Part shown: in pieces, positions 20,122 to 52,839 of the stretch
Numbering within the stretch: the stretch's first letter is position 1
Layout: each line of letters opens with the position of its first letter
Assembly (NCBI GenBank): GCA_964016885.1
Contig: OZ024741.1
Coordinates: forward strand, 409,696,001-409,760,000
Direction of reading: 5' to 3'
DNA length: 64,000 nt
From: Eledone cirrhosa
Lineage: Eukaryota
The notes under the pieces: model-generated
Seen by the model: only the letters and a program-made list of their open reading frames with translations
Told to the model about the DNA's origin: nothing
Databases searched by the model: none
Made by a program: the position numbers and the translations under genes

Positions 20122-20557
20122 ATTTTGAGTATATGTTGGTTGTATACCAACACCTCAGTATGCAGGCTGGAGCACTCGACGAAGTGCACAGGTTGGTTTG
20201 GTTACTCCGGAGTAGTGTAAAATAAAGTTAAATAAAAGTCAAATGATTAAAATTTAGCTTCGTTTATTACTGCTATATATATTTCAGTGACAGCCATCTT
20301 TGGCTGTGACCTCTTCAGGCAGTTTGAATTAGTATGGTATAGACAAGTACATATGTTGTTTAGGTGTATAACCCAACAAGGAACTGGGCATATCAGAGTA
20401 TTGACAATATTATACACCTAAACAACATATGTACTTGTCTATACCATACTAATTCAAACTGCCTGAAGAGGTCACAGCCAAAGATGGCTGTCACTGAAAT
20501 ATATATAGCAGTAATAAACGAAGCTAAATTTTAATCATTTGACTTTTATTTAACTTT
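20122..20557. mobile_element. non-coding Penelope-like pLTR-derived inverted-repeat element
   Basis: 148-bp arms 20224-20371 and 20410-20557 with 38-bp spacer; each arm has a hammerhead motif. Confidence 0.75.
20458..20512 (+). ncRNA. minimal type I hammerhead ribozyme (mirror copy at 20269-20323, minus)
   Basis: ACUGC-CUGAAGA-[GGU.ACAGCC/GGCUGU.ACU]-GAAA-UAUAUAUA-GCAGU: stem I ACUGC/GCAGU, palindromic stem III. Confidence 0.7.
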
Positions 20558-21539
20558 GTTATATATATATATATATATATATACCACATTAGGTATATAT
20601 ATATATATATATATACACCACATTAGGTATATATATATACCTAATATATATATATACCACATTAGGTATATATATTTATACCAGATTAGGTGTATATATA
20701 TATATATACCACATTAGGTATATATATATATATATATATACACCACATTAGGTATATATATATATATATATACCACATTAGGTATATATATATATATATA
20801 TACCACATTAGGTATATATATATACCACATTAGGTATATATATATATATATACCACATTAGGTATATATATACCACATTAGGTATATATATACCACATTA
20901 GGTATATATATATATATACCACATTAGGTATATATATACACCACATTAGGTATATATATACCACATTAGGTATATATATATATATATATATATACTAGAT
21001 TAGGTATATATATATATATACCTAATATATATATATATACCACATTAAACATATATATACCACATTAGACATATATACTACATTAGGTATACCACATGTT
21101 CCCCATTCTTGGTCTATAACAGAGAAGAGAAGAAATGATTCAAACATGAGATTCTTCAAGCAATATCTCTGGGAGATATTAAGTGTAGCAAAAGTAAGGC
21201 CCTCTTTCATTATTTTTTTATTGAAAAATTGTTTATTAAAACTACTGCAATTTATTTTTGTTCAATAAAAAATGTTTAAATGGCGTTACTTTTGCTGCTC
21301 CCTGAATAAAAAAAACAGACTTCCCACAAGAAATTTAATTAATTTTAAGGATTGTAAAATAATTGTTAAATATATAAATAAATTGACTCCCCCACCACTA
21401 ACCCACAACCCTAAACATTTTAATCCACAGAGATTAGTAATTTAAGTTACATGTACAATGGTATGGGTTTGTTTTAATGATAGCAGGATGGATCTGATAA
21501 AAGCCCACATCTGGGGTCAGCTGGATTGTCCAGGGTTGA

Positions 21540-22035
21540 TGGGAAGAGATCAGATGGTCTTACTCTTTGACCCCTGGGTAAGAGGTTGATGTCTCATTTG
21601 GGAGAGTACAGTCAGTGACTCCTTTACTCCCTCCCACATCCTGGATGCTGCAGTAAATGTGAGGGTCACTGTATCTGTAGCTGGACAGAATAAAATTCTA
21701 AAATACCAGCAATTATTGACAAACTATTTTGTTTTTCAGTCTGTGGCATCCAAGACATTTGGAGAAGCAGGGCTGCTGACAATGGAGTTCTTGTCATCGA
21801 TGGCAGCTTACCAAGGTATCAGGTAATGCTCCTGGTGAGGGCGCTTGGTTGTTCCAGTGACTTAGACTCGCTATCACCCAGCCTTACTGAAGTGTCAGGT
21901 GGTGCCCCTTGGTGAGGGTACTTGGTTGTTCCAGTGACTTAGCCATGCTATCACTCGGCCTTACTGAAGTGTCAGGTAATGCTCCTGGTGAGGGCGCTTG
22001 GTTGTTCCAGTGACTTAGTCCCACTATCACCCACA
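21540..22035 (+). mobile_element. degenerate CRE-clade 3' fragment with ~77-bp tandem triplication of its end
   Basis: gatggtcttactctttgaccctgg..tcccacatcctggatgctgcag..aaaattctaaaatac, homologous to 1490-1830; three caggt..cctggtgaggg..cttggttgttccagtgacttag units. Confidence 0.7.
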
Positions 22036-22104
22036 GTAGTGTTGCAAATATGTTGGCTTGCCTCAAAAGTTATTAGAGGGAAGCTTCAGCAAACTTTGAG
22101 GTGT

Positions 22105-22572
22105 GAGGGGTCTTCTCACCCCCCCCCTGTTTTACTGAGTATGTGGGTCTTCTCTCACCCCCCTGTTTTACTGAGTATTTGGGTCTTCTCTCTCTCCCCC
22201 TTATTTTACTGAGTATGTGGGTCTTCTCTCACCCCCCTGTTTTACTGAGTATTTGGGTCTTCTCTCTCTCCCCCTTATTTTACTGAGTATTTGGGTCTTC
22301 TCTCTCTCCCCCTTATTTTATTGAGTATTTGGGTCTTCTCTCTCTCCCCCTTATTTTACTGAGTATTTGGGTCTTCTCTCTCTCCCCCTTATTTTACTGA
22401 GTATTTGGGTCTTCTCTCTCTCCCCCTTATTTTACTGAGTATGTGGGTCTTCTCTCACCCCCCTGTTTTACTGAGTATTTGGGTCTTCTCTCTCTCCCCC
22501 TTATTTTATTGAGTATTTGGGTCTTCTCTCTCTCCCCCTTATTTTATTGAGTATTTGGGTCTTCTCTCTTCC
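22105..22572. repeat. 36/38-bp minisatellite, ~12-13 units
   Basis: ttttactgagtat[tg]tgggtcttctctc..ccccc. Confidence 0.9.
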
Positions 22573-22628
22573 CACTTTTTTTTTGTTTAGTACTGTATAT
22601 ATATATATATATATATATATATATATAT

Positions 22629-49700: not shown

Positions 49701-50200
49701 GGGAGGAGGGGGTAGGTCGGAGCAAGTTAGCTCCTCTGGTGCGTGCCGCAGTTGGTGGAGAATGAGAGGTCGGAGGCTGACCGTTTGTCACATAGTCATT
49801 CCACCAAGCAGGTCTCTTGGTCGTTCGACGCATGCCACCGCCACCTAGAGTGGACTAGGTTAAAGTGGTGGCAACTTTAGCAATCGGCAATCGCCGGTGA
49901 TAGTTCGGTCGAAACATCGGGCCACCGACGGGTTGAACGAATACCTAGGTGGGCTGTGCGCGAGGACGAAGTAAGGGGTGAGCAAGGAGAGGGATGGAAT
50001 GTGGATAAGGGGTGAGAAGATTATGAGTGCGTAGAGAGGAGTGTGGTCATGTGAGAGGCAGATAAATACAGTGGGAGAGAAAGAGCACTGAACATGCAAA
50101 GAGAAGAAAAATAAAAACGCTAGAAATACAAAATCTAAGGCTGTGAGTTTGCGAAATTGTGAGTTTGTGTGAAAAAAAAACAAAAAAAAAAACACATGGG
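46770..50200 (-). mobile_element. CRE-clade non-LTR retrotransposon (PHD finger, RT, CCHC-like motif, RLE), near full length, frameshifted
   Basis: PHD CALC..KCHLCHASYHRSC..WTCKWC; RT GSGAGIDGLRPQHL, LKLDLRNAFNSVSR, GVQQGD.LGP, WYLD; QAALP.RFGG.GL; CRCG..GLHSLSC; RLE KRPDGLTLCPW..WDVTV..KTLKY. Confidence 0.9.
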
Positions 50201-51959
50201 CAAGACTTCAGTAAAATCAAAACCTGAATGTTGGTGATACGAGATGTTTACAATTACAGAGTGATTACATTACTGGTCCTGAATTCTATCAAGTGGTCAA
50301 AGCTTCTAATTCTGTGAAATAGAATGGAAGTATGGATTGACCTTTCAGTCACACCTGACTATAAATAGATTCAGGTTATTTCAAGAAGGAGATGGGATGG
50401 TGCCATGTGAAATCTCTTCTTGTGAAGCTAGTGGTGGTTCCTCGCCATTTATAATTATTTATTTTAATTTTATGTTTGGGGGGTTTGTTTTTGAAAAATT
50501 GTAAGTGTACGTTAAGGAGGAATGTATAATTGTGTGATATAATTGCTCCAGGTTGGTTCCCTGCGTTGTTGCCACAACCAATCCTTTAACATTTTTTTCC
50601 CCCCGAAGATCTGTTATTCCTCTCCGTAGATTGTAAATGGTAAAATCCGTTCGAATGTCTCTGGGAGTTAAATGATCCAACGGAATGGTAAAATCCAGTT
50701 CCTTGAAGAATATTTTGAAGTTGTCTCAGACAAAGCATACACTAATGCGAAAAAATGGAAAAGTTGAAAATGTTTACCTCGTTTGGTGTCGAATTTGTAC
50801 ACACGCTTGTTTTCCTAAATTTCAAATATACTTGTTTTTCAATCCACTCAATGGTCCGATGGTTTATTTTTGAAATGTTAACATCGAAGCTGCTGTTAAA
50901 CTTTCTATTTAAGATAGCAATTGTTGTCAGAGTCGTTTAACTCAGTGGCTAAGAGCGCACAGTGGAATTTCAGAGGTACGGAGTTCCCTCCCCCCCCCCC
51001 CCCCGTAATGGACCCTAACTTGCAATCAGTATTGAATTTTGTTCGATATTTACATCAATTTGTTAAAAATTAAAAATATCAACTCATCAATGTATATGTA
51101 TGTATACATATATGTACATGTATATGTGTACATAATTATGGAGATAACGTTCAGATGAATAATAAATTGTGGAATTTCCTAGCTTTCGTCCGGGTAAGGT
51201 TAAGTAGGCTTTTTGCTGTGTTACCTTAGGTTTATAAGGACCATTTAAGTCAATATTTCAGTGATTGATTTCTTGTTTTTGGTGGGTAGTCGCACGTGGT
51301 TGTACGTGTTGCTTATGTTGACTTAACTGGAGCCCTAAAAAAACCCGTCCGGCAGGGACGGCTGCTGAAAGATCGCTGCTTTCACCCTTAACGGTGAAAG
51401 CAGCGATTCTTTGCTTAAACTTTAATCTGTTATTTTAATAAATATTTGCTCTAGGGTTCTTATATATTTGATATATATTTATCCTTATCGAGCCCTCTTT
51501 GGATTTTAGTCTTCACATTTATTATTATTACTATATATATATATTAATAAAAGGAATTCCAACTTTGTCTGATTAACTCGTCTTATTTACAATCCTTTAA
51601 AATTATAATGATATTATAATGAAATAGTATAGTAGAATATTAAATGTTAATTGAACAAGTACTTTCAAGCTTCGCAATCGTGAGGTTCATATTCAGTGGT
51701 GACAGTTAAGTTTGCAATTTTCTTATTCACACACACACACACACACACACACACACATACACACACACACACACACACACACACACACACACACACACAC
51801 ACACACACACACACACACACACACATAAATTATATATATATACGTATACTTACACATGAACTACTGACCAAATAATTTTTGGTACCAATGAGTTAAAGAC
51901 ATCTGTCAAATCAATTAGTGGTGAAGGAGGTGTATATATATATATATATATATATATAT

Positions 51960-52391
51960 ATATTGTTATATTTGGGGAGGGTCATATTTGCGTAATATTG
52001 CCAGAATTAATAACAGAACACACTCACTGTTTGGTTGGTTTTCGCTTCTCGCTGTCTTTTATATATATATATCTGCGATCTAACTTACTCGGTCCTCAAT
52101 GTTGCCATTGACTGACCGGCGGTCAAAAATAATACAGATACAATATAGACAAACACATATATATATAGTTTACATATGTAAACTATATATATATGTGTTT
52201 GTCTATATTGTATCTGTATTATTTTTGACCGCCGGTCAGTCAATGGCAACATTGAGGACCGAGTAAGTTAGATCGCAGATATATATATATAAAAGACAGC
52301 GAGAAGCGAAAACCAACCAAACAGTGAGTGTGTTCTGTTATTAATTCTGGCAATATTACGCAAATATGACCCTCCCCAAATATAACAATAT
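51960..52391. repeat. perfect spacerless palindrome, ~216-bp arms
   Basis: centre tacat|atgta at 52175/52176; arms match out to tattgttata/tataacaata. Confidence 0.92.
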
Positions 52392-52446
52392 CTGTTTCGA
52401 CACACGATTTCATATAAAAAACCTCGCAAAACTAATTCATCGCCGC

Positions 52447-52711
52447 TATATATATATATATATATATATATATATATATATATATATATATATATATATA
52501 TATATATATATATATATATATATATATATATATATATATATATATATATATATATATATATATATATATATATATATATATATATATATATATATATATA
52601 TATATATATATATATATATATATATATATATATATATATATATATATATATATATATATATATATATATATATATATATATATATATATATATATATATA
52701 TATATATATAT
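52447..52711. repeat. pure (TA)n microsatellite, ~265 bp
   Basis: uninterrupted TA dinucleotides. Confidence 0.97.
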
Positions 52712-52839
52712 TCATAACGAAGGAAGTGTGGTAAGGAACCAGGTGGACCATAACGCACCAGAGTACTCAATACTTAGAGTAGTAGAGTGGGTAATAGGAA
52801 AATATTCAAGACCCGACGGCAGAGCTCGTTGCCGTTTCG

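Follow-up and report, generated by a model that had tools for sequence, protein, structure and literature searches.

Introduction

Penelope-like elements (PLEs) are the sister group of telomerase reverse transcriptases (RTs), and how they choose the start site of reverse transcription and come to carry a tail on one side only is a stated question in the PLE literature. The closest described relatives of the elements reported here are those of the Hydra clade, for which the published account (Craig et al., 2021; PMC8557442) gives DKT, RW[RK] and CxCX5C as the marks of the clade, one open reading frame (ORF) of ~700 aa, a hammerhead ribozyme, targeting of (TA)n repeats, and an inverted pseudo-long terminal repeat (pLTR) with a one-sided tail of 30-40 nt, which is attributed to endonuclease cleavage. 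In this work we analyzed a stretch of 64,000 nucleotides of the Eledone cirrhosa genome (assembly GCA_964016885.1, contig OZ024741.1, positions 409,696,001 to 409,760,000 of the forward strand), hereafter the window, which holds elements that share these features, with tails of ~50-190 nt instead of 30-40 nt; one unit measures 3.5 kb. Close to their junctions with (TA)n these elements carry a bulged hairpin, usually twice and ahead of their ORF, which probably sets the position at which reverse transcription begins.

A second system that bears comparison is the PAc Poseidon PLE of Anolis, in which reverse transcription is reported to start internally at two adjacent sites which bound the tail and to need RNA 3' of them (Frangieh et al., 2024; PMC11167929). 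As described in that report, the two starts bounding the tail, the protein-binding region 3' of the starts, the upstream hammerhead and the AT-rich target all have counterparts in the arrangement proposed below. Poseidon belongs to a different clade, and the parts of the report consulted here do not offer a duplicated conserved hairpin as the cause of the two sites. Hydra elements, their fold-backs, their tails and their hammerheads are already known.

The hairpin is likely an RT-positioning stem-loop, a kind known elsewhere, here in a known clade. In long interspersed nuclear elements (LINEs) the stem-loop is 5' of the start and becomes part of the copy, and in the epsilon signal of hepatitis B virus (HBV) the bulge templates priming; the hairpin described here would in contrast lie 3' of the start, be left out of the product, and be doubled. 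The likeness to the 3'-tail stem-loop of the eel LINE UnaL2 (PMC1636434) and to HBV epsilon (PMC10534774), as these are outlined there, is that of a bulged or internally looped RNA stem-loop which is recognised by RT for template choice. Non-LTR retrozymes are likewise short hammerhead-bearing sequences derived from PLEs (bioRxiv 10.64898/2026.07.22.740005), although in the account given there they are tandem non-autonomous units, whereas the modules of the window are fold-back stumps, truncated at the 5' end, of coding Hydra families. In the main text of PMC8557442 the strings "hairpin" and "palindrom" have 0 occurrences each, although the hairpin can be seen in its coral and sea-cucumber consensi. 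Neither our literature searches nor term look-ups of PMC8557442, PMC4209133 and PMC3846280 found a description of the hairpin; subscription papers and Repbase reports were not covered.

A Bulged Hairpin Close to (TA)n Repeats

A preliminary description of the window had reported an 8-bp palindrome at a similar distance from the microsatellite in seven modules, and all seven sites were found (8130, 20170, 22670, 25914, 38744, ~51490, and 52761; these positions also name the families below). The motif GAGNNCTC occurs 13 times in the window. Six of the occurrences lie 59, 41, 35, 36, 34, and 49 nt from a (TA)n block, i.e., in a zone of 34-59 nt which makes up 4.2% of the window (binomial p 7e-6, a post hoc value that is the best of 64 classes of the form XYZ-NN-complement, the runner-up having 0.019). 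The other seven are unconnected with (TA)n, and the variant at 8130 has a short TA run at a distance of ~55 nt. The positional enrichment repeats outside the window in 100 stretches of 10 kb taken at round coordinates, 60 for discovery and 40 held out. In the 600 kb of the discovery set (1162 flanks) GAGNNCTC was counted 7 times at 30-39 nt and 16 times at 40-49 nt, with 0-8 in the other bins, and the corresponding counts in the held-out 400 kb were 8 and 14.

The motif is the 3' foot, together with the next four bases, of a bulged hairpin of the form RCTC-stem-loop-stem'-T(T/C/A)-GAGY. Read toward (TA)n, it opens with RCTC and an inner stem; the loop varies in length, and a bulge of two bases, T(T/C/A), precedes GAGY and four variable bases. 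With a descriptor that was set before the held-out test, and with 20 dinucleotide shuffles as the null, the hairpin was found 20-75 nt from the repeat in 50 of 1609 held-out (TA)n flanks against 0-3 per shuffle; in the discovery set the figure was 43 of 1795, again against 0-3. A lack of enrichment near (TA)n, one of the outcomes that the preliminary description had allowed for, does not hold, and neither does an origin from a tRNA or from the A-box of a short interspersed nuclear element, since ARAGORN found 0 genes and no tRNA was among 100 Rfam rows. The Rfam scan of the window gave just sub-threshold microRNA-like matches lying on microsatellites and reported no hammerhead. The peak is seen in the orientation that reads toward (TA)n and there is none in the opposite one. 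CTC/GAG is the sole enriched foot among the commoner ones (53 vs. 13 in the control zone), and among the bulge lengths 2 nt stands out clearly (55 vs. 15; the other lengths gave 18 vs. 11, 6 vs. 7, 8 vs. 2, and 6 vs. 4).

The 102 hairpin matches in 1.06 Mb form 24 clusters. Of these, 15 are multi-copy, the largest with 34 members, and the other 9 are singletons, a part of them probably due to chance. The outer pair of the foot was left free in a further comparison, in which sites were picked by their 3' letters and an inner Watson-Crick stem alone. Near (TA)n it was Watson-Crick in 74 of 76 sites (57 A-T, 17 G-C) against 14 of 37 far sites, these being counts of copies and not of independent events; by family there were 12 with A-T and 7 with G-C. 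The GAG pairs with a CTC lying 12-75 nt upstream, while the CTC that follows the foot is kept in just 7 of 19 families. The palindrome is thus not a self-contained signal, as had been supposed, and is a by-product of the hairpin foot, because the first N of GAGNNCTC covaries with the upstream base and the trailing CTC is so rarely kept. Self-dimerisation through the palindrome GAGURCUC was considered and dropped for the same reason, i.e., that the palindrome is not conserved. The element-strand consensus TYGAGTRCTC of the preliminary description fails at 25914, which reads TA-GAGC-ACTC. What it proposed in general terms was borne out, in that PLE insertions which target (TA)n have a conserved cis-signal close to their 3' end and downstream of a hammerhead, and an RNA hairpin, one of the options it named, fits the bulged structure. 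The association with a hammerhead on the same strand likewise stands and is wider than the four cases first given, as a core or a 3' half lies 63-105 nt upstream at six of the seven sites. In the 38744 family the hammerhead belongs to the opposite, tailless arm, and the hammerhead at 38340 is part of a separate module.

Three observations on the hairpin stand apart from these counts. At L449:2960-2985 the foot of a variant hairpin 2 reads GCAC/GTGC, which may be a compensatory change within the CTC/GAG that is invariant elsewhere. A long satellite at G000:C1:14234974-14243563 (L349-L378) has a 58-bp unit that holds hairpin 1 of the 52761 family and its spacer. A generic twin-hairpin pattern was run on the same genome and gave 898 matches vs. 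212 for the control; all matches listed were from one satellite, and the search was unusable.

Two Hairpins and Two Insertion Ends

The modules are 5'-truncated PLE ends, often arranged as head-to-head fold-backs with one tailless and one tailed arm, and hairpin-bearing ends number ~100 per Mb in the E. cirrhosa genome sample. When (TA)n junctions were mapped with microsatellite masking, 174 of 216 tailless junctions lay 1-15 nt before the 5' foot of the hairpin (hairpin 1), with modes of 6-8 nt in most families, and 156 tailed junctions lay 24-82 nt after its 3' foot. Among loci of three families chosen on their tailed arm, the partner arm was tailless in 52 of 56 (18/18, 21/24, and 13/14). 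A tail-free query for the 38744 family returned 10 short and 18 long ends, all at the same two sites (28 of 30 loci parsed), and loose ends of contigs repeat the same two (TA)n ends, with offsets of 3 and 5 nt in the 52761 family. In many loci, including positions 20111-20122 of the window, (TC)n runs stand between the last base of the element and (TA)n, at short and at long ends alike; slippage at priming is one possible source of them.

Full-length units of five families have two hairpins between the hammerhead and the ATG, the second lying 18-70 nt before the ATG. In the 51490 family, whose units have an open frame of 713 aa (as in L281), hairpin 2 was found in seven of the eight copies whose ORF match begins at residue 1; it has a cUUCGg or cCUCGg loop and is separated by ~6 nt from the tail end upstream and by 18 nt from the ATG downstream. 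One full-length locus of the 20170 family (L017) has it six nt past the tail end, followed by a Hydra ORF. A tail-anchored pattern for the 52761 family gave 316 matches in the genome and 0 with the reversed-pattern control; among the 100 matches listed of these 316, 96 had hairpin 2 at 6 nt past the tail end with an inner stem of four pairs and a common continuation. For the 22670 family hairpin 2 was found seven nt past the tail end in six of nine pattern matches. A Hydra ORF follows hairpin 2 in 10 of 12 loci of the 52761 family and in three of six of the 22670 family. Both hairpins are also present in L059, a relative of the 25914 family, and in L311, of a further family; L040 has a wobble variant, hairpin 2 is mismatched in L067, and it was not seen in L049.

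Hairpin 1 begins ~3-12 nt past the tailless ends and hairpin 2 ~3-11 nt past the tailed ends, with an offset that is similar in at least 11 families for hairpin 1 and in five for hairpin 2. The distance of 35-60 nt that had first been noted is thus not set by the motif itself: the nearby (TA)n junction is the one just before the second hairpin, which is absent from the insertion. A 299-bp tandem array made up of the tail together with hairpin 2, and full-length Hydra units arrayed head to tail every ~3.54 kb, were also seen at G000:C2:356030062-356031914, C1:91476593-91487278, and C1:437200332-437210983.

Elements Carrying the Hairpin

By their motifs and by their likeness, judged by eye, to published consensi, the carriers are assigned to the Hydra clade of PLEs. 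ORFs of the 51490 and 52761 families read SDKTGN together with RLRWRAF or RLRWRTF, i.e., DKT replacing DKG and an RWK-type motif, and that of the 20170 family reads DKTNN and MRWK. CxCX5C linkers were read from translations as CNCRNRADC (L281) and CNCRYPNAC (the frame at window position 32485). Hammerhead cores were found by pattern in the 8130, 20170, 25914, and 38744 families, with degenerate cores or 3' halves elsewhere, and the motif families are inserted in (TA)n. Six of the seven window families could be joined to a Hydra ORF, the 25914 family through its diverged relative L059, and the 38744 family follows the 3' end of a Hydra ORF at many loci; for the 8130 family no ORF link was seen in 25 loci. 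The modules, which had been called unrelated, appear to be deeply diverged members of one clade with ORF pieces 34-54% identical, and the suspicion that all instances are one homologous family is true at the level of the clade only. There were 1246 homologues of the Hydra ORF at E <= 1e-20. Pfam gave no match for the Hydra ORF of L281, and BLASTP of Hydra ORFs against the DKG-type PLE of the window gave no significant match. This PLE (42369-44347, plus strand, with DKG, RVT_1, and GIY-YIG) lies outside the Hydra system and served as a control; it has a tail of its own of ~40 nt, without such a hairpin. Its full-length continuation (also in L048) has a different short stem ~3 nt past the long end.

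The distribution in other organisms was addressed in sequence databases and in published consensi. Thirteen Hydra-like loci (L441-L453) came from six assemblies labelled bacterial, whose contigs are most likely mis-binned host DNA. The hairpin stands after the hammerhead or before the ATG in seven of the 13 loci and in four of the six assemblies, with twin hairpins in L442, L448, L443, and L446 (two by descriptor and two by eye); L446 has its (TA)n end just before hairpin 2. The remaining loci comprise one with a degenerate hairpin, three without the region and two with tailless ends only. By eye, the hairpin is clear in three of six published Hydra consensi, namely coral Hydra-2_Amil and sea-cucumber Hydra-1_Ajap and Hydra-2_Ajap, and the 5' end of Hydra-1_Ajap has it twice. 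Searches of the PMC8557442 supplement with 9-mers, which were not exhaustive, hit four places in Hydra untranslated regions (UTRs) and three places inside Naiad/Chlamys sequence, where no hairpin was seen by eye. No relatives were found in viral contigs, and the sequencing runs listed as matching included no RNA data set. A pattern scan of metagenomes gave 120 stretches. A three-pair stem was present in 18 of them, a hammerhead-like core in one and a PLE ORF in none; this chance-like result was uninformative.

Proposed Positioning of Reverse Transcription

From this comparative evidence we think it likely that each bulged hairpin (RCUC-stem-loop-stem'-U[U/C/A]-GAGY) acts as an RNA landmark which sets the start of reverse transcription a few bases 5' of itself; if the hairpins are start-site signals for the RT, the one-sided tail would be explained. 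The template would be a transcript reading through tandem units, and the RT-GIY-YIG protein would bind a hairpin of it and nick (TA)n. The 3' end of the target would pair with the spacer of UA-rich sequence that lies 5' of the hairpin, and copying would run away from the hairpin. A start at hairpin 1 would give the tailless pLTR end, and a start at hairpin 2 would give the pLTR with its tail and would include hairpin 1 in the copy, which would place the motif 35-60 nt from (TA)n. More speculatively, the head-to-head fold-backs could result if each hairpin served for one start, the two starts being on different strands of the target. We also put forward, tentatively, that the doubled hairpin might be a ruler: each copy would dock one member of an RT dimer, downstream of the start that this RT makes, and a single transcript would so prime both cut strands of (TA)n, at two positions staggered relative to each other. 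Were this true, the head-to-head fold-backs, the one-sided tail and internal initiation would all follow from one cis-element, which could also be used as a portable tag to direct insertion by the RT. Being short, doubled and covarying, and standing at a nearly constant distance from either end, the hairpin offers a precise handle on the start site and a simple marker for annotating Hydra ends, with a scope of one clade and a comparative basis.

Several observations weigh against this interpretation. Predicted folds take in the foot at six of the seven window sites, and at 20170 the predicted fold leaves it out; the antisense strand has the lower folding energy at three of the seven, and rescue by G-U vs. 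A-C pairs backs the sense strand weakly, with 18 vs. 8 at near sites and 45 vs. 44 at far sites. When four whole two-hairpin regions were folded, cross-pairing or other pairings often beat two separate hairpins, and some copies of hairpin 2 have one inner pair only. Because of the alternative fold at 20170 and the predicted cross-pairing, the hairpin fold may need a protein, or may switch. The pattern searches for hairpin 2 preset the feet; they left free only the offset, the pairing of the inner stem and the presence of an ORF downstream. They gave no hairpin 2 for the 8130 family and none for the 38744 family, the patterns for the latter being built on the minor variant of the window. The end offsets are uncertain by ~3 nt because the spacers often begin with TA-like letters. 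Among the published consensi the hairpin was not seen by eye in Hydra-1_Amil and Hydra-1_Obim and is degenerate in Hydra-1_Crog. Beyond the clade, the DKG-type PLE of the window has two ends ~40 nt apart and the hairpin in 0 of 23 loci, and the AC-rich stem-loop of PAc Poseidon, as given in its Fig. S1 text, is without RCUC/UY-GAGY (PMC11167929). The hairpin cannot explain PLE tails generally, because this two-ended tail and the Poseidon stem-loop both lack the motif.

The alternative that survives best, though we regard it as unlikely, is that the hairpin marks a cut in RNA. A nuclease of the host or of the element would cleave the read-through transcript on the 5' side of each copy, a few bases away, and copying would then begin from an ordinary RNA 3' end. 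This would predict identical genomic ends and identical covariation, and in the Poseidon report RNA-seq read ends do fall on the start sites (PMC11167929). The in vitro reactions of the same report, however, start inside an uncut template and give an unchanged product when 3' sequence is added, and no nuclease with such specificity was identified in our analysis. It is more doubtful that the signal is read as DNA by the GIY-YIG endonuclease, whose recognition was another option of the preliminary description, be it as a duplex palindrome, a cruciform or single-stranded cDNA. The strand tests for RNA given above are weak, and the Drosophila virilis Penelope endonuclease is cited in PMC11167929, at second hand, as needing tail sequence for recognition. 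Against a DNA signal, the GAGNNCTC palindrome is kept in so few of the families, feet 12-75 nt apart with covarying inner stems fit a single strand that folds on itself and do not fit a duplex site, UUCG-type loops are present, and the hairpin that would set the end is absent from both the product and the (TA)n target.

We consider it improbable that the hairpins are 5' UTR elements serving transcription, packaging or translation while the ends are set by UA-rich spacers which pair with nicked (TA)n. The nearness of hairpin 2 to the ATG would suit such a role and spacers often begin TAT or ATA, yet the UTRs are AT-rich throughout and the ends nevertheless cluster at two sites with a similar hairpin offset in so many families; the spacer of the 38744 family is TACCTA and its end is still sharp. 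That the pattern is chance or an echo of one or two high-copy families, as might be argued from the single family that supplies 34 of the 102 matches and from the singletons that are probably due to chance, is already refuted by the 15 multi-copy clusters, the held-out replication and the presence in other assemblies and in published consensi, and hardly merits further consideration.

Features of the Window

Hairpin 1 of the 8130 family (8130-8167, minus strand) marks a tailed end and has an ACTC/GAGT foot, a TT bulge and a long inner stem; the family has at least 40 copies, and a hammerhead core (CTGATGA ... GAAAC), read from the sequence, lies upstream at 8234-8329 on the same strand. The 20170 insertion is a fold-back. 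Its tailed arm, on the minus strand, has hairpin 1 at 20170-20213 (ACTC/GAGT, TC bulge), which opens a tail of ~95 nt, and a hammerhead core at 20282-20318. Its inverted tailless pLTR arm (20410-20559, plus strand) has a core at 20463-20499 and a (TA)n end just before the expected start of hairpin 1. The fold-back is inserted in CCACATTAGG arrays alternating with (TA)n (19509-20110 and 20560-21091). At 22670-22723 (minus strand) hairpin 1 has ACTC/GAGT and a TT bulge, with a hammerhead 3' half at 22779-22786 and the inverted tailless arm of the insertion at 22853-22971 (plus strand). The compensatory form, GCTC/GAGC with a TA bulge, stands at 25914-25938 (minus strand; hammerhead at 25990-26037), and GCTC/GAGC with a TC bulge at 51448-51497 (plus strand; hammerhead 3' half at 51396-51404). 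The 38744 family has a variant of hairpin 1 with a 1-nt bulge or a G/CT internal loop (38728-38751, plus strand) and a tailless arm (38452-38620, minus strand) which stops 6 nt before hairpin 1 and has a degenerate hammerhead core. Hairpin 1 of the most abundant family, the one with 34 of the 102 matches, lies at 52761-52788 (minus strand; hammerhead 3' half at 52831-52838). A further hairpin 1 at 45785-45869 (plus strand) had been overlooked in the preliminary description because it has no CTC after the foot, and a degenerate long-loop copy at 31328-31401 (minus strand) has GAAC in place of the GAGC that is intact in L031 and L107. The broken Hydra-type PLE ORF of the window (31811-33021, plus strand) has a CxCX5C linker before a GIY-YIG-type motif.

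Three other features were recorded in the window. Positions 8770-17215 are an 8.4-kb satellite with a 47-bp period which resembles a repeated segment in nearby RTE-like 3' ends, and positions 51960-52391 form a perfect 216-bp inverted repeat with no spacer. At 27502-28938 (minus strand) there is an uninterrupted, apparently intronless frame of 478 aa for a sugar transporter (PF00083, E 8e-94).

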